A DNA stretch of 64,000 bases. It comes from Polyangiaceae bacterium. Its GTDB lineage: Bacteria > Myxococcota_A > Polyangia > Polyangiales > Polyangiaceae. Shown here piece after piece: positions 48,262 to 57,000 of this stretch. The notes under the pieces were generated by a model. The model had not been told where the DNA came from and ran no database searches. It saw nothing but the letters and a program-made list of their open reading frames with translations. Position 1 is the stretch's first letter; every line of letters starts with the position of its first letter. The DNA is taken from contig JANRKO010000043.1 in the NCBI GenBank assembly GCA_033763455.1, positions 64,001-128,000 of the forward strand, in the 5' to 3' direction. A program made the translations under genes and the position numbers.

Positions 48262-49923
48262 TCAGTCACGAAGGGAGAGCACGTGAACTTGAACTTCGGG
48301 GCGGTAGCCGCTGATTTGTGTGAGCGAGTTGCGGGCTGCTTTTCGCACTACTTCTTCCAATTCTGACGGGGCTTTGTAAGACGGCTTCAGCTTCTGAGCG
48401 ATGTCGCGAGCTACTGAGCGCAGAGACGCGGCGTCGTTGTCAACGAGGGGAATGCCAAGACTGGTGACGTGTGGGGGGGACACAACTCTTCCGTTCGCAT
48501 CCAGGGCGATAGCCACAGAGGCCACGCCCGCGCGCCCCAACTCTTCGCGGCGCTCAAGCACTTCCGGCAGGAGCACATCCCCCCGGTGCGAGACAGCGAC
48601 CTTCCCAAACGAGACCTGGGGTTCGCGCCGAAAGCCATCTTTTTGAAGTAAAACTGGGCTGCCGTTTTCAACAACAACCACACTGGGTACGCCGAGATCC
48701 TGCGCCAATTCTGCATGGCGGTTCATGTGGCGCAAGGTGCCGTGGAGCGGCAGAAAGTGCTCAGGCTCGATGAGCTCAATCATGTGTGCCTGCTCAGAGC
48801 GGCTGGCGTGCCCACTTGTGTGCACGTCTGGATGGGTAATGGGCGTCTTTAGCGTGGCACCGAGCCGCGTGAGGTCATTCATTAGAACGCTGACAGCGCG
48901 TTCATTGCCCGGTATCACTCGACTTGAAAAGACGATTGTGTCGCCTTCTGCGACCTTGATGGTTGGATGCAGCCCCTTGGAAAGGCGTTGCAGTGCGGAA
49001 TGCCGTTCTGCCTGGGTGCCGCCGGCCAACACCAACAGCTTTTCGCGGGGCCAGTTGGCGGCATCTTCCGGAGATAAAACCAGATCGCTCGGCCAGGCTA
49101 ACACTCCGAGCTTACGGGCAAGCTCGGCCTGGGTGCTGAGGCTTCGCCCCATGAGAAACAGGCGCCGGCCTGTTTTCAGGGCGATGTCGCCCAACATCAG
49201 TAAGCGGTGAATGTTGCTCGCAAAAAGCGCCACGAACACGCGCCCTGGGGCCTTTTCGATGATTTGAGCGAGGGCTTCTCCGACCATCTTCTCGGAACCG
49301 CGCCGCTCTTCCACGTCCACGTTCGTGCTGTCGCTGAGGAGCAGGCTCACTCCGTCGCGACCAATTGCTCGCATGCGATCCGCATTCGAAGGTGGGCCCG
49401 CAGGTGGTGCTTCATCAAAGCTGAAATCACCCGTGTGAAAGATAGTGCCCTGCGAAGAATGGATGGCGAGCGCACACGCGTCCACAATGGAATGTGCTAC
49501 GTCCACCGGCTCAATCGAAAACGGACCGACGTCGTACAGCTTGCCCGTGTGGGCTTCGATGAGGTCAACATCCCCTTCAGAAAAATCAAACTCCTGGAGC
49601 CTCTTTCGAACCAGCCCGAGTGTGTGAGGCAAGCCCCAAACTGGCACATCGAGTTCATCTAAGAGGTACGGTAGCGCGCCAATATGATCTTCGTGGCCGT
49701 GGGTGAGAAAGACGCCCGAGATGCGATCAGCCCGTTCCAGCAGCCAACGAAAATCGGGCCGAAACAAATCGATCCCGTGATCGTCAGCCGGGAAGGTGCA
49801 GCCACAATCCACCACGAGGATGCCCCGCTCGTGCTCAACCGCGAGGCAATTCATGCCAATTTCGCCCAAGCCCCCAAGGGGCACAATCCGTATGGATCCC
49901 GAGTCAAGCAATGAACGAGGCAT
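48262..49923 (-). CDS. rnj: ribonuclease J
   Basis: PLGGLGEIGMN, THGHEDHIG, HTGDF, DSTN, IPGNE and HTSGHA. Confidence 0.95.
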   Translation of the reverse strand: MPRSLLDSGSIRIVPLGGLGEIGMNCLAVEHERGILVVDCGCTFPADDHGIDLFRPDFRWLLERADRISGVFLTHGHEDHIGALPYLLDELDVPVWGLPHTLGLVRKRLQEFDFSEGDVDLIEAHTGKLYDVGPFSIEPVDVAHSIVDACALAIHSSQGTIFHTGDFSFDEAPPAGPPSNADRMRAIGRDGVSLLLSDSTNVDVEERRGSEKMVGEALAQIIEKAPGRVFVALFASNIHRLLMLGDIALKTGRRLFLMGRSLSTQAELARKLGVLAWPSDLVLSPEDAANWPREKLLVLAGGTQAERHSALQRLSKGLHPTIKVAEGDTIVFSSRVIPGNERAVSVLMNDLTRLGATLKTPITHPDVHTSGHASRSEQAHMIELIEPEHFLPLHGTLRHMNRHAELAQDLGVPSVVVVENGSPVLLQKDGFRREPQVSFGKVAVSHRGDVLLPEVLERREELGRAGVASVAIALDANGRVVSPPHVTSLGIPLVDNDAASLRSVARDIAQKLKPSYKAPSELEEVVRKAARNSLTQISGYRPEVQVHVLSLRD

Positions 49924-50076
49924 CTACTGGGTCAACTCTTAGCGGCTCGACCGAACGAGGGGCGCAAAATAATGGGGCCAAGGTAAGGGAGACAAGCGGC
50001 GTAGCCTTAGCAGAGTTCGCCCCCCACGAGTATACTTGCCGTGCCTTTACCGTAATGCACCGCAAGGAGCCATTCA

Positions 50077-50478
50077 TTGAGCGTATCGCTTTCGCCCCAA
50101 GCTGCAGCTGAGCTCATGGCACAAGGCCATAAGTATCTTGACGTGCGTTCTCGGGCAGAATTCGTGCTCGGTCACGTGCCGGGGTCACTCCACGTCCCGC
50201 TGCTCTTGCCGGAGCACGAGGGCGGGGGGGTAGATCCATCGTTTGTCGACGCGGTTTTGCGCCTGGCTGAAAAAGATAGGGCGATGATTGTTGGATGTGA
50301 ATCGGGGCAGCGCTCGAAGGTTGCGCTCGCCTTGTTGGTCAGCGCAGGTTTTGAAAAGCTACACGAGTTGGGTCCAGGCTTCGGCGGCACGCGGGATGCG
50401 TTCGGTCGCCGTATTCCGGGGTGGGCCCAGTGTGGCTTGCCGGTGGAATTGGGTTCGGCGGATGCCTCCGTAGACTAA
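50077..50478 (+). CDS. rhodanese-like domain protein
   Basis: LDVRS..EF..GHVPGS and CESGQRS. Confidence 0.85.
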   Translation: MSVSLSPQAAAELMAQGHKYLDVRSRAEFVLGHVPGSLHVPLLLPEHEGGGVDPSFVDAVLRLAEKDRAMIVGCESGQRSKVALALLVSAGFEKLHELGPGFGGTRDAFGRRIPGWAQCGLPVELGSADASVD

Positions 50479-50500
50479 CTGCTGATGCCCCGAGAGGCGC

Positions 50501-51097
50501 TTAGGGCTTCTTTGTTGCCGAAACCCGTGCATAATCTTCTGCCGCACGTTCGAGCATGATGGAATCGCGGGCGGCGCGTTCAGCTTCGGCCACAAGCTTT
50601 GCGGTGAAGAGGGTGAGCCCCCAGATGCCGTTTTCAGGGCGCACACGAAACGGGTAGCGGGTACCCCTGGCTGTTTCAACACTTGCGCGGTCAGCAGTTT
50701 GCTCAACGCGCGCTACTCCGGAAAGATCTCGCCGGAGGCGGTTCAACCAACCTTCCTGCCTAGCGTAGATCGCAAAAACGTCAGCCCCGTCTGGAGCGTT
50801 CGCGATGGATGCGTATTCGGCAGCGAGCCGGCTGCGCTCAGGTTCGGGAAAAGTAGCGAGAATGCGCGCGAGCGAGCGTTTTCTGTAGTCACGAATGCTA
50901 TAGCACGCGTGCTGCGCTGGGGTTTCGAGGTACGCAAAGAAGTCCTCTGGCCGTCCGGTGTTGACGGCCTTCACGATGCGCAAATACGCGCCAGTTGGCG
51001 TCTTGTCGCTCGGGTAAGTGAGAACTTCGACGAGTGCAACTGCGCCCACGGAGAGCACCAAAATCCCCGCCACGAGCCAGCCGATCTTGCGATTCAC
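50501..51097 (-). CDS. hypothetical membrane-anchored protein
   Basis: N-terminal TM segment; 198 aa. Confidence 0.65.
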   Translation of the reverse strand: MNRKIGWLVAGILVLSVGAVALVEVLTYPSDKTPTGAYLRIVKAVNTGRPEDFFAYLETPAQHACYSIRDYRKRSLARILATFPEPERSRLAAEYASIANAPDGADVFAIYARQEGWLNRLRRDLSGVARVEQTADRASVETARGTRYPFRVRPENGIWGLTLFTAKLVAEAERAARDSIMLERAAEDYARVSATKKP

Positions 51098-51246
51098 CGC
51101 GCAAAGCTACCACTCGCAGTGCCGGGCCACAACGCGCTGATGCGCGCCTTTTGGCGTTCGAAAGCTTCGCTTTGGGTACGCCGCGTGGGCGAGGTCAGCC
51201 TTTGCTTGCGCTTCTGCCGCGCCGGGGAGTATCAGTGGCGCCAACG

Positions 51247-52035
51247 ATGCGAAACGCCGCCAAAATCGCCGTGATTGTGCCGGCTTTCAACGAGGAGCGC
51301 CTCATCCGGCGGACGCTTTCTGGGATGCCTCCGTGGGTGGACGCGATTATTGTCGTAGACGATGCGAGTCAGGATCAGACGCGGCATCAGGTAGCCAAAG
51401 TCACTGACCGACGCGTGCAATTGGTAGTGCACGAACGCAACTTGGGCGTGGGGGCAGCAATCGCCACAGGGTACCGGCGAGCACTGCGGGAGAGCATGGA
51501 TGTGATGGTTGTCATGGCGGGCGACAACCAAATGGATCCGGATGACCTGGGGCTCGTAGTGGGGCCCATTTTGGATAAGCAAGCCGATTACGTGAAAGGT
51601 AATCGCTTCGTTCACCCCGAGGTTCGCCGTATGCCTTGGTTAAGGCGTCTGGGCGGGCGGTATTTGTCTGCGCTCACACGCCTCACCACTGGCCTTCCAG
51701 TTCATGATGCGCAGTGTGGCTACACGGCGCTTGGGCGGAGCATGTTGGAGCGTTTGCCGCTTGAAAGCCTATGGCCCAGCTTCGGGTACCCGAATGATCT
51801 TCTCGCGCTCTTGGCGGGGGCTGGGGCCAAGGTGGCGGAAGTGCCCGTGCGCCCGGTCTACGCTGAAGAACGGAGTGGGATCCGCGCTTGGCATGTTTTG
51901 ACAATCACGCGTGTGATTTTGAGCCGTTGGTTTGCAGCCCGTCGCCGCTCTTCACTTCACCGAAACGTGAACGTGCGTGCTCTCGTAATAAACCCAGTCG
52001 AAACCTGCGGTGACAGCGAGCCCCGCCAGGCGTGA
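51247..52035 (+). CDS. GT2 glycosyltransferase
   Basis: VPAFNEE, VDDASQD, NLGVGAAI, GDNQMDP, KGNRF and DAQCGY. Confidence 0.9.
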   Translation: MRNAAKIAVIVPAFNEERLIRRTLSGMPPWVDAIIVVDDASQDQTRHQVAKVTDRRVQLVVHERNLGVGAAIATGYRRALRESMDVMVVMAGDNQMDPDDLGLVVGPILDKQADYVKGNRFVHPEVRRMPWLRRLGGRYLSALTRLTTGLPVHDAQCGYTALGRSMLERLPLESLWPSFGYPNDLLALLAGAGAKVAEVPVRPVYAEERSGIRAWHVLTITRVILSRWFAARRRSSLHRNVNVRALVINPVETCGDSEPRQA

Positions 52036-52542
52036 AAGTTTGCTGTTGGAGACGTCGGAAGTGGTCACATCGGCGGCGCGTCCTGCATAGTGCAGGCTCC
52101 CCGTGCCGTGTTCCAATTGCTCGTCCCATGCCTCGGTGATACGCAGTTTGGTACCGGGCCACTCCTCGGCGACCTTCTCAGAAAGAAGGGCCAACTTCTC
52201 GCGCAAGCGCGGAGACATCACCAGATCGGCCCCCGTTCTTTCCTCGTCCTTGAAAACCCATGCCTCTCGATCGCCTCGCACCAAGCGCTTGAAGGATTCG
52301 GAACCGCGCTCGACTCGCTCCAGCAACGGCCCTGAGGCTTCTCTCTCGGACGTGGCTGGGAAAAATTGCCCAGGGAGCAAGCGGCGCTGCTGATCGCGAC
52401 GGGCCGAGAGGCTCGGACCATCACCCGAATCACAGCCGGCAGCACTCAGCCCAAAACTGGCCACAGACAGCGCAAGCAATCCCCATCCGCACAAAAGTTT
52501 CGGGCGTGGAATTGCTGGAAATACTCGCCAAAGAACGGGCAT
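51952..52542 (-). CDS. Hedgehog N-terminal signalling-domain (HH_signal) lipoprotein
   Basis: FKDEERTGAD, WPGTKLRITEAWDE, SLHYAGRAADVTTSD and LAVTAGFDWVYYESTHVHVSVK match Shh-N motifs; lipobox-like AAGC; start at ATG 52542 (alternative TTG 52584). Confidence 0.92.
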   Translation of the reverse strand: MPVLWRVFPAIPRPKLLCGWGLLALSVASFGLSAAGCDSGDGPSLSARRDQQRRLLPGQFFPATSEREASGPLLERVERGSESFKRLVRGDREAWVFKDEERTGADLVMSPRLREKLALLSEKVAEEWPGTKLRITEAWDEQLEHGTGSLHYAGRAADVTTSDVSNSKLSRLAGLAVTAGFDWVYYESTHVHVSVK

Positions 52543-52612
52543 GGGTGCCAGACATCCTAGGCAGAGTGGGCCCAAGAGCGCCAAGTTTTTGGGCCAAATT
52601 CTCAGCCGTTAC

Positions 52613-53887
52613 TTATCTGTTGGTTTGGGTCGCGGCCCCACCTTGACTCGGCGCCTCGGGTTCGCTGCCGATGTCAACGGGGCCGAGAGATTCAGGTGCC
52701 GCGGACTCTTGCCCTTCCTTGGCTCGGTTGGCCGAAGGGGCCTCTTGCACGTCGCGAGAATCCTCAGCGCGCAGTTGGTCCCAGCCATCGGCCGTCTGTG
52801 AGTCACATGCCACCTGTGCGTGGGGATTGTACTTTAGCAAATCAAAGACAATGGGACCAAAGCGACTCTCAGCTGAGATGCGCACAGGCACGTGGCGTGG
52901 ATCGTCCGAGAACCAAATCTGAAACTTGCGACGCTCCCGTGAGGGATCGGCACCCTGACCGACACGCACAGCATCCCCGTCCACACGTACCGCGGGGCGA
53001 GGGGCCCCATCTATCACCACCACATCCATGCCTCGAAAGACCATGTTTGCGCGCAGCAAGAATCTCCCAGAAACGACGTAAAAATAGCCCTGCTCACCCA
53101 CCTTCGGACGCCAGGAACGTAAGAGCAGTATAGCGCTCTGCAAGTCGTGCGCGGCGGCGCCGTCCGGAACGTCGATTGTGTCCTCACGGACTTCTGAGGT
53201 GTGCTTCTTGTTAACGTAGTGGAAAGCGCCTGGAGAAAAATCGAGATTATAAGATACCTCGGAGCCGCTGTCAGTCACGGCGAGCAAGCTCTTCTTGGGG
53301 GTCGCACTCTCCGCATCAACCGTGGTGCTGGCTTCGGCTTTGATGCTCTTTACCAATCGCAACAAGCCGCTCGTGCGCATACTAGTGGTGAGCTTCAAGC
53401 TGCCTTCACCGCTTGGGCAGTTGCCGACGTTGAACGCCTCAAGTTGCCCGACCGTCATGCCGAGCAAATCGAACCTCGCCAAGAGACGCTCCGAGCGCGT
53501 CAGCCGCAGGGTGTTTTGGTCGAACTGGATGAGCGTACTTTTGGGGTTTTGGACTGGCGCCGTGCTCTCCCAAGTCTGGCCAGCGCACCCGCACACTAGC
53601 GCCGCAAGGCCCAACACGTTGGCAAAAAGTCCCCGACGCACGATGGCCGAAGGGTGAGGCTTTTCGGGTGATTTGGCAATCTCGGGGTCGAGCCACGGCA
53701 GCCGGTCTGGAATCACGCTCGGTCCGCCCACGTCGGAATCGCCTTGTGGGCGCATAAGAGCTACACTGCAATTTGTGCTCGCTAAGCTGTTGGCCGGGGC
53801 TTTCGGCCTCATTTTCGTTGGCAAGATGTTTTTCAAGCCACAGCTGAAAGCCGTGGGGCGCTGGTTAGAGGCTGCTGTAAACGCCAT
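52613..53887 (-). CDS. DUF3108-like exported protein
   Basis: DLQSAILLLRS and IWFSDDPRHVPVRI...FGPI motifs; lipobox-like VCGC; true start probably downstream of 53887. Confidence 0.7.
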   Translation of the reverse strand: MAFTAASNQRPTAFSCGLKNILPTKMRPKAPANSLASTNCSVALMRPQGDSDVGGPSVIPDRLPWLDPEIAKSPEKPHPSAIVRRGLFANVLGLAALVCGCAGQTWESTAPVQNPKSTLIQFDQNTLRLTRSERLLARFDLLGMTVGQLEAFNVGNCPSGEGSLKLTTSMRTSGLLRLVKSIKAEASTTVDAESATPKKSLLAVTDSGSEVSYNLDFSPGAFHYVNKKHTSEVREDTIDVPDGAAAHDLQSAILLLRSWRPKVGEQGYFYVVSGRFLLRANMVFRGMDVVVIDGAPRPAVRVDGDAVRVGQGADPSRERRKFQIWFSDDPRHVPVRISAESRFGPIVFDLLKYNPHAQVACDSQTADGWDQLRAEDSRDVQEAPSANRAKEGQESAAPESLGPVDIGSEPEAPSQGGAATQTNR

Positions 53888-54010
53888 GTTGATCGCGATC
53901 GCCCTCGTTTGGACGGTTCAACTGTTGCTCTACTTTTTGCGCAGCTAAATTCCCCCCTAGGGCTCGCTCGGCGCCCGTTCACGGGGTTTTCTCGCCTTGG
54001 GTAATGCGGC

Positions 54011-57000
54011 GTGCTGGCCGTCCGTAAGGATCTTGAGAGATCCATGGACGACCGCGGGAAATCCAAGAGCACGGGTCAGCCCGGCGAAGTCCCCAAGCTG
54101 AGTCGTGTGGAACCGCCAGCGCCCAAGACCAATCTTGGTCTGGGTCTGCCCCCCAAACTCGCCGCCGCATCCCTTTCGGGAGCCAAGGCGACGCCGACTT
54201 CGGCAGCTGGTGCCCCCCCGAAGCTGAGTGACTTGCTCAAGGGAAGTCCAAAGCCAGGTTCACCGCAGATGCAGAAGGCGAGTCGGGTCACCAGGCCTGT
54301 CGCTGAGCCGAAGCCAGTCGCGGAGGCGCCTAAGGTTACGGTCGGGCAAGCGAAGGTAATCGCGGAGGCGCCTAAGGTTGTGGTTGAAGCGCCTAAGAGA
54401 CATACTCAGGCTAACGCCTCACGCCCAGCCGCTTCCGTGTTTGGCAAACCGATCCCACCGCGTGCGCACTCCGTGCCCCCTAGGCCACAGACAGAGCCAG
54501 CCGTCCTCGCAGTGGGAAGCGATGACGCCATCTTGGTGGCGTTAAAAGCAGCTCTGGCACGTCACGGCGTGTTTGTCGAATCGGCCGAAGCGGGATCGGT
54601 GGTGGAAACGGTGATTGCTGCCGCACCTGACCTCATCCTGTTGCTTGGGGATGCCGCCAAAGACTGCGGGCGTGCAACGCTAGAGAAGCTCAGTGCTTCC
54701 CCGCAGAGTTCGGTCGTACCAGTGGCGATCATGGACGACAACATGGCGCTGGACGCCAGGCTGCAGGCGTTCCGTTACGGGGTTACGGCGGTAATACCCA
54801 GATCTGCAAGCATTGACGCGATCGCCGAGAAAGTTGCGCGCTTAGCCAAGGAGATCCCTTACCGCGGGACGGATAGCCCCGAGATGGTTGGTGAATCCAC
54901 GCTTGAAGAGTTCGTTGCTGCCCTGAGCTCGGAGCTCCGGACAGGGATCTTGAGCGTCGGCGGAGCGGAGACGCCCCCCGACCAGGCGATCCGTTTGGTA
55001 CTTGGCGGCGGTAAGCTTCTTGCGGAGTTTGTGGACGATTTTGTGAAGCGCGTTCGCACGCATGTGGTCTCGGCCGAGCCGCTTACGTACGAGTTCGACG
55101 AACGCGCTGGGGGAACGCTCGGACTGCTTGGGAGCGATTCGAAGGCTAAGCTGCCCGTGAGTGTCAAAGGCCTACGTCTGGCTTTGGCCGATAACGATGC
55201 GGCCCGCGCAGACACGGTGGCGCAGGAGTTGCGAAGCCACGGTGCGCAAGTTTTCGTTATCGATCTTTCTCCCAGCGAAGCGAGGCTTTCCAAGCTCAGG
55301 CAGCTAGATCCAGCGGTGCTTCTGATCGGAGAAAACCATCTAACGGGTGAAGGCCATGAGCTTGTCCGACGTATGCGCCGGGACGCGAGGTTGCGCTGGG
55401 CGTCATTGTTGGTGCTGCGTTGGGACGAGCTATTTGCCGATCCCCATGAAATGCCCATCGTAGAGAGGCTTTCGAGTTCCCTCGCGACGCTGGTGGAGCC
55501 GGAGCGGTCCTTGCTTGAACGTGCCAACAGCGGGTTGGGTTTTGATACGCGGTTGGAGACCACTGGCCCCGCTCGCTTGTTGCGTGGGCTGAAGGGTTGC
55601 TCGCAACTCCTGCGGCTAAATATTAACAATCCCCGTATCAACGTGGCGTTGGATGTTGCCGAGGGGCTCATCGTTGGAGCAAGCGCCGTCGTCATGAGTC
55701 CGGTTCCAGCTCAGCTTTCGGGGCCATTAGCCCTGGCCGCGTACTTAGTGCTGGGCTCGGGTCGGGTGCACGTAGAGCGAGCTGCTGCCGCCGCCGACGC
55801 AAACATCATGGCCACCATTGATGTGGCGTTGGACTTGGCGGAGGCGGAAACTCCGCCAATCTCGCCTTCGATTCCGGCGCCCGCGCGAGCCGTCGAACCG
55901 GTTGCAACCCCTTCGGTGCCCCCTCTGGGGAAGCTGCCGGTATTCGACGTCCCCGATCCGCCGCCCATGCCGGTATCTATGGCCGCGCCCGTGCGCGAAC
56001 GTCCACCACCGCCGAGTGCGCAGGCACAGGTTCCTTCCGTCATCGTGGCGAGCGCGGTCAACGTCGATCCTTCCCTCGACCAGGAATTTCGGCGCGAGAG
56101 TCCTGGTCGCAATCAGCGGAAACCGGAGGCGCGCATTGGCTGGCAAATGGGGGTTCTCTGGTCAGTTTTGGGGGTGGTGCAGTTAGCCTTGGCCGCGGGG
56201 GTCGTATTGGCAGTGGTGCGAGTAATGCGCGGTTCATCGCCTGCCGCCGCCGCGAGCGTCGCTGTCGTCGAAAAGGCCACCGTAGGTGCTGCTGTGCAAC
56301 CCCCGAAGGGTCCCGAGCCCACCGAAGTACAACCACAGCCCTCCGTCGCGTCGGCTGCGCTTGGGCAACCCCCGTCAAAGCAAGATCCCGAACCTCCTCC
56401 GCCCGCGCAAGTGGCGGAAGCGAAGTCGGAGCTCATGTTCCCAAGGGCCGTACAGGCTCCCACCTGCGAGTTTTTGCTTGAGCACGCCGAGGCGCCACGA
56501 GGCGGCTTTTCTAAGGATTCCAGTGTCGCGTTGGGTGAGGGGCACAAGGCGCTCGTGAAGGGCAATGTCGACGCGGCGCAGACGGCGTTCTGCCGGGCAG
56601 CCATGTTGGACGCCGCCAACCCCAGAGTGCAGCTTGCTCTTGCACAGCTGCTGATTCTGCGCGGCGACGGAACGCAAGGTGAGGCAGTAGCGAGTCGAGC
56701 GTTGGCGCTGCACGGCGAAACGGCCCGCGCCAAGGGGCTCCTCGGAGACGCTCTTATAATCCGCGGAGATCTTGATGGCGCACGCGCTGCCTGGTTGGAT
56801 GCTGCCGGCCTGACAGCAAGTGACGCGGCGGCCATTCAGAAGCTTACGGAGCGAGCGCTGTGGGAAGGGGAGGCATCCGTGCGCAACAAGGACTACGCTC
56901 GCTCGGAGCGCTTTTTCTGGCGTATGTTGGCCTTTTTTCGCGACGATCCAGATGCCAATCTTGGCATGGCCCGAACCTACCTCTACCGCGGCGACCTAGA

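Follow-up and report, generated by a model that had tools for sequence, protein, structure and literature searches.

The 64,000-nucleotide stretch of Polyangiaceae DNA analysed here (the window) carries a complete, stand-alone bacterial Hedgehog-N gene. The gene is native to its host and vertically inherited within the genus, and the protein it encodes has, as judged from its predicted model, the Hedgehog-N (HhN) fold. It is fairly likely that the protein is a Zn peptidase of the LAS/M15 type, belonging to the branch of bacterial Hedgehog proteins (BacHh), which would be anchored in the cell envelope as a lipoprotein and would cut the peptides of peptidoglycan. The features on which this reading is built are as follows:

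51952..52542, minus strand: stand-alone bacterial Hedgehog-N gene, complete, 196 residues, with ATG at 52540-52542 and TGA at 51952-51954
52435..52542, minus strand: predicted lipoprotein signal peptide, residues 1-36 (from the sequence, the lipobox pattern and the model helix)
52432..52434, minus strand: Cys37 (TGT), predicted +1 lipidated Cys (from alignment invariance and spacing to the core)
52381..52431, minus strand: tether, residues 38-54, DSGDGPSLSARRDQQRR (from the alignment and the predicted model)
51955..52380, minus strand: predicted Hedgehog-N/LAS-type Zn peptidase core, residues 55-196 (from Pfam, AF2 and Foldseek)
51967..52110, minus strand: Zn and catalytic residues H145 (52108-52110), H151 (52090-52092), D158 (52069-52071), E187 (51982-51984), H190 (51973-51975) and H192 (51967-51969)
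52117..52245, minus strand: Ca-site residues E100 and E101 (52240-52245), D106 (52225-52227), E137 (52132-52134), D140 (52123-52125) and Q142 (52117-52119, replacing Asp)
52613..53887, minus strand: DUF3108 gene, upstream on the same strand (Pfam DUF3108, 64.1 bits)
51247..52035, plus strand: family-2 glycosyltransferase gene, convergent (Pfam Glycos_transf_2, 80.3 bits)

The longest Hedgehog-N frame spans 51952-52584 on the minus strand and opens with an in-frame TTG at 52584, giving 210 residues, 14 more than from the ATG. The ATG start agrees with the database gene call (P0001, 196 residues), and is fitted by the same-genus orthologues, which are 197 residues long and have their Cys at position 37. 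Residue numbers refer to the 196-residue form and were mapped to human SHH by the alignment to PDB sequences; codons were checked singly.

Fold and metal sites

An earlier reading of this DNA made without database searches (the sequence-only reading) had recognized a stand-alone Hedgehog-N domain about half identical to Shh, and profile and structure searches agree with it on both points. The coordinates it gave, 51952..52542, coincide with the ATG-started frame. Pfam HH_signal (PF01085) matches the protein with 157.5 bits (E 3e-46, profile positions 5-161 of 161, cut-off 22.1), as against 217-300 bits for animal proteins. Peptidase_M15_3 reaches 20.8 bits, under its Pfam cut-off of 23.2. All 25 matches at E <= 0.01 in a search of PDB sequences are Hedgehog proteins, with Shh at the top (1.2e-42). 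Identity to the N-domains of Shh, Dhh and Ihh is 46-53% (49-53% to their structures), and to all solved HhN structures 42-53% over 146-168 columns; the four motifs quoted earlier are present in the translation, and the Shh strings quoted beside them are found in the PDB alignments.

The AF2 model has an overall pLDDT of 88 (89-98 in the core). Foldseek superposes it on Shh, Dhh and Ihh with an rmsd of ~1.0 Å over 146 columns and a target-normalised TM of 0.85-0.94. The top 38 Foldseek matches in the PDB are all HhN chains, most of them at an rmsd of 0.9-1.4 Å, and no bacterial structure is among these 38. The next matches are LAS peptidases: LdcB/VanY, MepA and endolysin. Members of this LAS/MEROPS M15 group (LdcB/VanY, 4jid and 4ox3; MepA, 1u10; Ply500, 2vo9) share the H-x6-D...H-x-H motifs and the central sheet, but are remote (14-18% identity, TM 0.3-0.5, Foldseek E about 1e-2) and lack the Hh-type Ca site. 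Animal ShhN, DhhN and IhhN (1vhh, 3n1g, 3ho5) have the fold and both the Zn and Ca sites in common with the protein.

The Zn site and the catalytic Glu are intact, as the sequence-only reading had stated. All three Zn ligands are kept (H151, D158 and H192), with E187 as the catalytic Glu and H145 as the other catalytic His; the M15-type motifs are H151-x6-D158 and H190-x-H192, plus E187. The equivalents in human SHH are H134 (H145), H140 (H151), D147 (D158), E176 (E187), H180 (H190) and H182 (H192). Across 121 short relatives, 120-121 retain each of these Zn and catalytic positions, and the M15-type motifs with E187 are found in all 121. The Ca site is nearly intact, again as had been described, with five of the six ligands present (E100, E101, D106, E137 and D140) and Q142 in place of the sixth, an Asp (D131) in human SHH. 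Of the 121 short relatives, 118-121 retain the first five, while the sixth position varies in the same set (D in 52, N in 24, Q in 16, R in 13, E in 5).

Bacterial proteins of this kind are not new. BacHh were described in 2018, and proteins more than 50% identical to ShhN have been published (Roelink, 2018; PMC6027127); a core sequence from a 'Myxococcales bacterium' stands in the supplement of a later paper (Jagers and Roelink, 2021; PMC8052667). The novelty implied by the sequence-only reading was therefore overstated. Examples include proteins of Mesorhizobium, Bradyrhizobium, Rhizobium, Bacillus and Micromonospora (Roelink, 2018; Jagers and Roelink, 2021). Like them, the present protein has a domain of ~145 residues that is ~50% identical to ShhN, with the same Zn ligands and catalytic Glu (the E177 equivalent), the Ca site and the ...SVK/R end; its identity to Rhizobiaceae BacHh is 53-56% over the domain. 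In other respects it differs. All Ca residues are identical in the BacHh of Roelink (2018) as against five of six here, Q142 being a minor departure common to many members of the clade; the domain there is C-terminal in a larger protein, whereas here it is preceded by no more than a signal peptide and a tether of 17 residues; and, unlike the Rhizobiales genes, this one has no surrounding wall-enzyme operon.

Predicted lipoprotein leader and the animal Hedgehogs

The sequence-only reading overlooked a predicted lipoprotein signal peptide. Its n-region contains R6, R13 and K15, and is followed by a hydrophobic stretch ending in S-A-A-G before Cys37; in the AF2 model residues 20-35 form a helix (pLDDT about 60-66), and the tether has a pLDDT of 66-69. 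A PROSITE-type lipobox pattern was run on the protein and 120 short relatives, and fits the protein and, at the equivalent Cys, 87 of the 120. The lipobox has Ala at -3 instead of Leu, and its Cys lies as far in as position 37. Cys37 is invariant in a 60-sequence alignment (A1) and stands 25 residues from the conserved core Pro62; of 120 short relatives, 116 have a Cys at most 45 residues upstream of this anchor Pro, the modal spacing being 25-28. Lgt and LspA are both encoded in the host genome. Judged from these sequence features, the protein is probably made as a lipoprotein, with Cys37 lipidated. The tether bears a clade-conserved P-S-L-S-[KR] and a basic cluster, and its L45 is nearly invariant.

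Animal HhN likewise has a signal peptide and then a Cys 25 residues ahead of the conserved Pro (82 of 85 animal Hh have a Cys at most 45 residues upstream of it, with a modal spacing of 25). The predicted lipids differ, being bacterial diacylglyceryl/N-acyl in the one and the product of Hhat palmitoylation in the other. The two also differ at the C-terminus: the frame ends ...HVHVSVK and then TGA, where animal proteins run on into a Hint domain. The absence of a Hint/Hog domain had been noted before, and Hint (PF01079) has no match in the host genome, which is 93.7% complete. Animal Hh undergo Hint/Hog autoprocessing and receive a cholesterol adduct; with no such domain, no cholesterol adduct is expected here.

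The PDB alignment had raised the suspicion that the tether is homologous to the Patched-binding, or Cardin-Weintraub, peptide of animals; this was not accepted as shown, the gain over composition-preserving shuffles being too small. Relative to truncation the tether contributes 2.8 bits, but relative to such shuffles a mean of 0.75 bits; 14 of 108 relatives beat all 20 of their shuffles, and the present protein is not among them. Relatedness among the sequences inflates the Wilcoxon p of this test. Homology of the N-terminal peptides of animal Hh and this protein is thus not demonstrable by shuffling.

These comparisons bear on the suggestion, made in the sequence-only reading, that the protein could be a signal between cells. 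Such a Hedgehog-like, lipid-anchored protein would be passed from cell to cell, for example by outer-membrane exchange, and sensed by a receptor. Its layout would be that of mature animal Hh (signal peptide, lipidated N-terminal Cys, 25 residues, core), and exchange of outer-membrane lipoproteins is known in myxobacteria (PMC3325183). The analysis found no support for such a role, which is very improbable: there is no Hint/cholesterol module, no receptor or other partner gene is conserved nearby at 80 loci, the tether has hardly any position-specific similarity to the Patched-binding peptide (173.7 bits with the real tether, 172.8 +/- 1.8 with shuffled ones), and in other bacteria the same domain is joined to wall hydrolases and other lytic enzymes.

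The sequence-only reading also held that the protein bears on the origin of Hedgehog, and this bearing is modest. Trees and AU tests used 60 rows, a random subsample of 128 representatives with P0121 left out, under fast LG+G4; over 145 columns support was weak throughout, and no root was inferred. Animal Hh form one clade apart from the short bacterial clade, and in the best trees they group with multi-domain bacterial forms, not with the short lipoproteins; a tree that joins animals and the short lipoprotein clade is not rejected (AU p = 0.37). It could be supposed that the lipidated Cys of animal Hh was inherited from a stand-alone lipoprotein BacHh, its +1 Cys being later taken over by Hhat palmitoylation. 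The ancestor would have had, ahead of the core, a signal peptide, a lipobox Cys and 25 residues that include a basic cluster. The equal spacing from Cys to core (modes 25-28 and 25) and the AU result are compatible with this descent, which we nonetheless consider improbable. Since the best trees place animal Hh with multi-domain forms, and similarity of the tethers is nearly absent, convergence, open to any secreted domain with a short leader, is the simpler account.

Genome context and distribution

The composition of the Hedgehog-N gene (GC 0.601, GC3 0.645, CAI-like 0.708) is inside the range of its neighbours in every measure. Three further genomes of the genus have the same gene order, with neighbours 60-75% and Hh proteins 59-64% identical, and contigs from public metagenome runs span both junctions of the gene. 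Sediment and soil are the habitats in which this DNA occurs. The closest genomic relatives of the host, an uncultured myxobacterium, are Polyangiaceae or Polyangiales MAGs, in keeping with the myxobacterial host proposed earlier. An identity of ~50% to vertebrate Hh might raise the thought of mis-binned animal DNA, or of a very recent transfer from an animal to a bacterium. Both are refuted by the neighbour-like composition, the genus-wide synteny, the independent contigs across both junctions and the trees that part the short bacterial clade from the single animal clade; introns and a Hint domain are absent as well, and the probability left to an artefact is negligible. The eukaryotic contamination that the sequence-only reading had weighed is excluded on the same grounds.

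The DUF3108 stop codon lies 70 nt before the Hedgehog-N ATG. A scan of this gap found no promoter- or terminator-like site; the single promoter-like match of the scan is inside the DUF3108 ORF. DUF3108 adjoins the Hedgehog-N gene at three loci (L005, L007, L008) and is absent from this position in four other genera. From this arrangement the two genes may be co-transcribed, in this genus only. On the other side, the glycosyltransferase gene runs with its last 84 nt into the 3' end of the Hedgehog-N gene; the probable start of the glycosyltransferase, from orthologues of 262 residues, is M72 of the long ORF. In this genus the Hedgehog-N gene has no wall-related neighbour, and clustering of flanking ORFs at 80 loci gave no conserved partner, immunity, secretion or receptor gene. 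The clusters consisted of shadow ORFs of the Hedgehog-N gene and a lineage-specific neighbour, the largest real cluster, at 10 of the 80 loci. VanY was not found in the host genome, and Rfam had no match in 49000-56000.

At least 461 short relatives of the protein exist, mostly in Polyangiaceae MAGs. The distribution covers 7 of 24 further genomes in the family and 2 of 29 in a second sample, a patchiness that suggests an accessory, not essential, role in wall remodelling or wall scavenging. One match that begins at residue 20 (L078) is a three-transmembrane Rhodobacterales form and not a lipoprotein.

A candidate envelope peptidase and its alternatives

The link to the cell wall comes from longer relatives. 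Among 30 of these without Hint, 14 bear a domain that hydrolyses or binds the wall (Amidase_3, Phage_lysozyme, GH25, VanY, Pesticin, or Amidase_2 together with Glucosaminidase and PG_binding_1), and further fusions with YkuD_2, PG_binding_1, lysozyme and Amidase_3 occur among 97 representatives. One such wall-domain fusion, from a Polyangiaceae MAG (P0122), contains two HhN domains, 54% and 44% identical to the present protein. Elsewhere in bacteria HhN forms the C-terminal end of very long proteins, or is joined to Pesticin or WXG100. The search for longer relatives found fused forms only in other organisms. Rhizobiales BacHh genes are described in operons with lysozyme, amidase and M23 genes (Jagers and Roelink, 2021). 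It is from the domain fusions of relatives and from the literature that we infer, by analogy, peptidoglycan peptidase activity. According to Roelink (2018), enzymatic activity had been shown for no BacHh, nor conclusively for ShhN.

The Zn peptidase role, one of two offered by the sequence-only reading, is the best-supported function, on the evidence of the fold, the catalytic residues and the wall-enzyme fusions of relatives. The precursor would be exported by Sec; Lgt would then put a diacylglycerol on Cys37 and LspA would remove the signal peptide. The acylated Cys37 would hold the 142-residue catalytic domain in the envelope through the tether of ~17 residues. There, a water molecule activated by Zn would cut a peptidoglycan peptide bond, in the stem peptide or the cross-link; E187 would act as general base, H145 would stabilise the transition state, and Ca at the acidic site would stabilise or tune the enzyme. 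Several observations count against an envelope peptidase: no wall neighbour, no partner in 80 loci, Gln as sixth Ca ligand, an atypical lipobox, M15_3 under its cut-off, and no functional name from NCBIfam or PHROGs.

The outer membrane is the likely site, because the residue at +2 is Asp and not the Lys of inner-membrane retention in Myxococcus xanthus. Lys at +2 is found in just 1 of 108 relatives; acidic or small residues prevail at +2/+3 among them, and the +7 residue of the protein is Pro. This placement leans on the sorting rules of a distant myxobacterium; the E. coli rule, by which Asp at +2 leads to inner-membrane retention, would give the inner membrane. The M. xanthus work ties Lys at +2 to retention in the inner membrane, and Ala at +7 to export to the matrix (Bhat, 2011).

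The same Zn peptidase could instead face outward, on the cell surface or on outer-membrane vesicles, and lyse the walls of prey or competitors or scavenge debris. The position of HhN at the end of very long proteins or beside Pesticin and WXG100, as in toxin modules, would suit such a use, as would the patchy, accessory spread, the acidic or small residues dominant at +2/+3, and the feeding or scavenging suggested for Rhizobiales BacHh (Jagers and Roelink, 2021). We regard it as possible but unlikely, given that no immunity-like or secretion gene is kept nearby in the 80 loci (largest cluster 10/80) and that +7 is Pro, not the Ala tied to matrix export in M. xanthus.

It is less probable still that the HhN fold has some target here other than peptidoglycan (a protein of the envelope or matrix, or a glycoconjugate), or that it is a non-catalytic module whose binding depends on metal. 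For ShhN, which functions as a ligand, no substrate has been demonstrated; M15 chemistry requires neither the Ca site nor the P-S-L-S-[KR] of the tether; and a Shh/BacHh chimera could not take the place of Shh in associating with the matrix, a sign that the specificities differ (Jagers and Roelink, 2021). Strict conservation of all catalytic residues, and domain partners in other bacteria that are nearly all wall enzymes, argue instead for a peptidase of the wall.

What the present gene adds to the known BacHh is a stand-alone lipoprotein form, as predicted from its leader, the animal-like spacing of 25 residues from the Cys, the lack of a conserved partner, and the fusions to wall enzymes and VanY in relatives elsewhere. 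The main text of Jagers and Roelink (2021) never uses the word 'lipoprotein'.

To the host, the protein would probably be one more accessory cell-wall enzyme. Its interest for the family is wider. To our knowledge no BacHh has been assayed or solved, and debate continues over whether the Hedgehog ligand is an active peptidase or descends from one. A small, single-domain, partner-free form with hundreds of natural variants is a convenient object on which to attempt the first activity assay and the first crystal structure, and a predicted lipobox Cys at the distance of the palmitoylated Cys offers a concrete, testable idea on the origin of N-terminal lipidation in Hedgehog.

Identity and active site of the Hedgehog-N protein

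The Hedgehog-N (Hh) gene lies in an interval across which the ORF list has one minus-strand ORF:

51952-52584, minus strand, Hh open reading frame

Its likely start is the ATG at 52540-52542, in agreement with the coordinates of the sequence-only reading, the 196-aa database gene call (P0001) and the 197-aa orthologues within the genus. The protein matches Pfam HH_signal at E 3e-46 (157.5 bits vs a cut-off of 22.1, profile positions 5-161 of 161), and the generic Peptidase_M15_3 profile stays below its cut-off (20.8 vs 23.2 bits). At E <= 0.01 the PDB search hit 25 sequences, every one a Hedgehog protein. AlphaFold2, run with 60 relatives, gave a predicted structure (pLDDT 88, core 89-98), and Foldseek superposes it on the N-domains of Shh, Dhh and Ihh at ~1.0 A (146 columns, 49-53% identity). 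Foldseek matches 1-38 are animal HhN chains throughout, and the next are LAS peptidases of the LdcB/VanY, MepA and endolysin types, at E ~1e-2.

Codons were checked against the DNA, and residues, numbered on the 196-aa protein, were mapped onto human SHH via the PDB sequence alignment. This alignment places the Zn ligands at H151, D158 and H192, the catalytic Glu at E187 and the second catalytic His at H145. Five Ca ligands are retained (E100, E101, D106, E137 and D140), and the sixth position is Q142, where Asp is replaced. Some of these residue names and roles are general background on the family. Others follow passages of Roelink (2018; PMC6027127) and the mutant list of Jagers and Roelink (2021; PMC8052667). 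Among 121 short relatives the Zn and catalytic residues are conserved in 120-121 and the five Ca ligands in 118-121; the sixth Ca position is variable (D in 52, N in 24, Q in 16, R in 13, E in 5). The protein terminates at SVK, whereas its animal counterparts run on into a Hint domain, and a PF01079 profile search of the genome (93.7% complete) found no Hint match.

The sequence-only reading had recognized a stand-alone Hedgehog domain with an intact Zn site, a Ca site with one Asp changed to Gln, and no Hint domain after VSVK. The translation contains the four motifs it quoted, and the PDB alignments contain the Shh strings it set against them. Because family identity, active-site residues, the SVK end and the absence of Hint all check out, that observation is confirmed in all particulars.

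Native status and distribution of the gene

Eukaryotic contamination, which codon usage would reveal, had been raised as an alternative origin. The composition of Hh is near that of its neighbours in GC (0.601 vs 0.587-0.626), GC3 (0.645 vs 0.628-0.664) and a CAI-like index (0.708 vs 0.71-0.735). The order hypothetical-198, GT2, Hh, DUF3108 is conserved in the genus, with all four genes in two other genomes and Hh and DUF3108 only in a third, where a contig end truncates the locus; in four other genera Hh has different neighbours. Within the genus the neighbours are 60-75% and Hh 59-64% identical, which together with the kept order indicates vertical descent. The region is tiled by Logan contigs that come from coded runs on sediment and soil in three studies. 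Both the GT2-Hh junction (record 2 of contig set X1, record 12 of X2, record 18 of X3) and the Hh-DUF3108 junction (X1 record 4) are bridged. One of these runs may itself be the source of the assembly. Hh is native to the bacterium. Its nearest relatives among genomes are MAGs titled Polyangiaceae or Polyangiales (69% and 64% identity), and 51 of the 80 loci kept, all 51 from MAGs, bear myxobacterial or deltaproteobacterial titles.

The gene is accessory and its distribution patchy. Of 3759 candidates in a word-indexed search, 461 proteins (115-368 aa) passed E <= 1e-5; the 120 matches listed are mostly ~180 aa long. An exhaustive search of 1.84 billion representatives gave 703 matches at E <= 1e-3, 456 at <= 1e-10 and 100 at <= 1e-30. 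The domain is found in 8 of 41 genomes of relatives, source genome included; among the other genomes it occurs in 3/3 of the genus, 7/24 of the family and 0/16 single genomes from other families of the order. Of 401 genomes sampled across the phylum, 16 match, and full-length matches of at least 150 bits are confined to the source family (2/29 others). Some ten genomes of another family, f45 (G075, G102, G127, G221, G266, G296, G325, G329 and G344), have weak partial HH_signal matches (57-74 bits, profile ~58-161) within ORFs of 554-656 aa; these seem to represent a LAS-type domain family at a greater distance.

Relation to animal Hedgehog

The main tree was a quick search on 128 representatives of 332 clustered domain sequences over 145 columns. 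The short lipoprotein forms fall into one 41-row cluster with the window protein (SH-aLRT 88), and the animal proteins into one 24-row cluster (SH-aLRT 89), nested in a 72-row cluster with multi-domain bacterial forms (SH-aLRT 89). A 60-row subsample, from which P0121 was left out, agreed with this tree (SH-aLRT 94.2 for the split). Forcing the animals together with the short clade cost 13.8 log-likelihood units and was not rejected (AU p = 0.367). In these unrooted, weakly supported domain trees the animals form a single clade and the window protein belongs to a separate one. The trees give no firm indication of the bacterial form nearest to animals or of the direction of transfer, and the suggested bearing on the origin of Hedgehog is modest. 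Transfer from a bacterium to a cnidarian is proposed in passages of Roelink (2018; PMC6027127).

Three database proteins (P0261, P0264 and P0271) have HH_signal followed by LDL-receptor class A repeats, P0271 also with Hint. They score a bacterial-like 174-196 bits, and the two in the tree, P0261 and P0264, branch off basally in the animal clade; all three may be divergent invertebrate Hedgehog relatives. P0121, a 783-aa metaclust record with ten stretches matched to the domain model, nests among vertebrate sequences; it could be a concatenate, either artificial or produced by mis-assembly.

Predicted lipoprotein architecture, partners and proposed function

Of the 120 short relatives listed, 116 have a Cys no more than 45 residues upstream of a conserved Pro (P62 in the window protein), at a modal spacing of 25-28. 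A PROSITE-type lipobox pattern fits at this Cys in 87 of the 120, most misses being truncated starts or a second Cys. In the window protein the residue is Cys37, which is invariant in the 60-sequence alignment A1 and also at position 37 of the 197-aa orthologues. Its spacing to P62 is exactly 25; in animal Hh a Cys is present in 82/85, with modal spacing 25 to Pro. Homology of the tether to the animal N-terminal peptide was not demonstrable, at a mean of +0.75 bits over shuffles (window protein with tether 173.7 vs 172.8 +/- 1.8).

The fold (from a predicted model) and the native status are established, as is the presence of the metal-binding and catalytic residues and of a lipobox-type leader. 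The source genome encodes Lgt and LspA. The precursor would be exported by Sec and processed by Lgt and LspA at Cys37, leaving the domain anchored via a tether of ~17 residues; by analogy with LAS peptidases, it would act on a peptidoglycan peptide bond. In Myxococcus xanthus, according to passages of Bhat (2011), +2 Lys directs lipoproteins to the inner membrane and +7 Ala to the matrix. The window protein has +2 Asp and +7 Pro (+2 Lys occurs in 1/108 of the clade), so under the rules of this distant relative it more likely resides in the outer membrane. By the E. coli rule, +2 Asp would instead mean retention in the inner membrane.

Fourteen of 30 long relatives without Hint carry Amidase_3, Phage_lysozyme, GH25, VanY, Pesticin, or Amidase_2/Glucosaminidase/PG_binding_1. 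Some of these accession-to-name links are presumed; the names Amidase_3, Phage_lysozyme, Pesticin, PG_binding_1 and VanY are those given in the scans. Scans of 97 representatives added fusions to YkuD_2, PG_binding_1, WXG100 and a three-transmembrane YLATT module, and in a 1127-aa Polyangiaceae protein (P0122) two HhN domains occur alongside wall hydrolases. Four proteins of other bacteria (P0232, P0154, P0220, P0124) show fusion to WXG100 or Pesticin or, in Bacillus pseudomycoides, have the domain at the end of 1092 aa, and for this reason it also seems to act as a secreted wall-degrading toxin module. The idea of a cell-cell signal is without any support.

Across 80 loci no conserved partner gene was found; the only recurrent ORFs were shadows of Hh itself and, in 10 loci, a lineage-specific neighbour. 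Within the genus, co-transcription of DUF3108 and Hh is possible, since the DUF3108 stop is 70 nt upstream and a site scan found no terminator-like site between. Within the DUF3108 ORF, ~700 nt upstream of the Hh start, an 11/12 sigma-70-like match (window 53246-53274 (-); CTGACA, 17-nt spacer, TATAAT) could be an internal promoter or chance. The convergent GT2 and Hh genes overlap 3'-to-3' by 84 nt (window 51952-52035), and by 78 nt in two sister species (L005:1495-1572, L007:1870-1947), so that the last ~27 GT2 residues are encoded opposite the catalytic E...H-x-H segment; the overlap may reflect no more than a late stop in the antisense frame. A rhodanese domain within 2 kb of Hh in three genera, stand-alone in the window (50077-50478) and fused to cytochrome c at two other loci (L010:6677-7882, L011:6720-8198), could be an old synteny remnant or chance. 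In one genome of another genus (G010), Hh is divergent from an Lgt gene and 1.5 kb from a LysM and Peptidase_M74 (MepA-like murein endopeptidase) gene, a suggestive context (L009:4150-5448 (-) and L009:7817-10237 (-)).

Passages of Roelink (2018; PMC6027127) describe about a dozen 'bacHh' proteins. Those of Jagers and Roelink (2021; PMC8052667) present BacHh as predicted peptidoglycan peptidases of M15A, with wall-enzyme operons in Mesorhizobium and Bradyrhizobium, and with conservation that leaves out the N-terminal Patched/heparan-binding part. A 'Myxococcales bacterium' core sequence (residues 109-212) is in the 2021 supplement (PMC8052667); the 2018 supplement lists no Myxococcales sequence. 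The searched literature yielded no description of a lipoprotein BacHh form (the word 'lipoprotein' is absent from the 2021 main text, PMC8052667), and passages of two papers that contain both 'Hedgehog' and 'lipobox' concern the Hint domain and SuFu. The finding is real and correctly described, yet of a kind already published. Its additions, modest but worth noting, are the stand-alone architecture as a lipoprotein and a Cys spacing that matches animal Hh.
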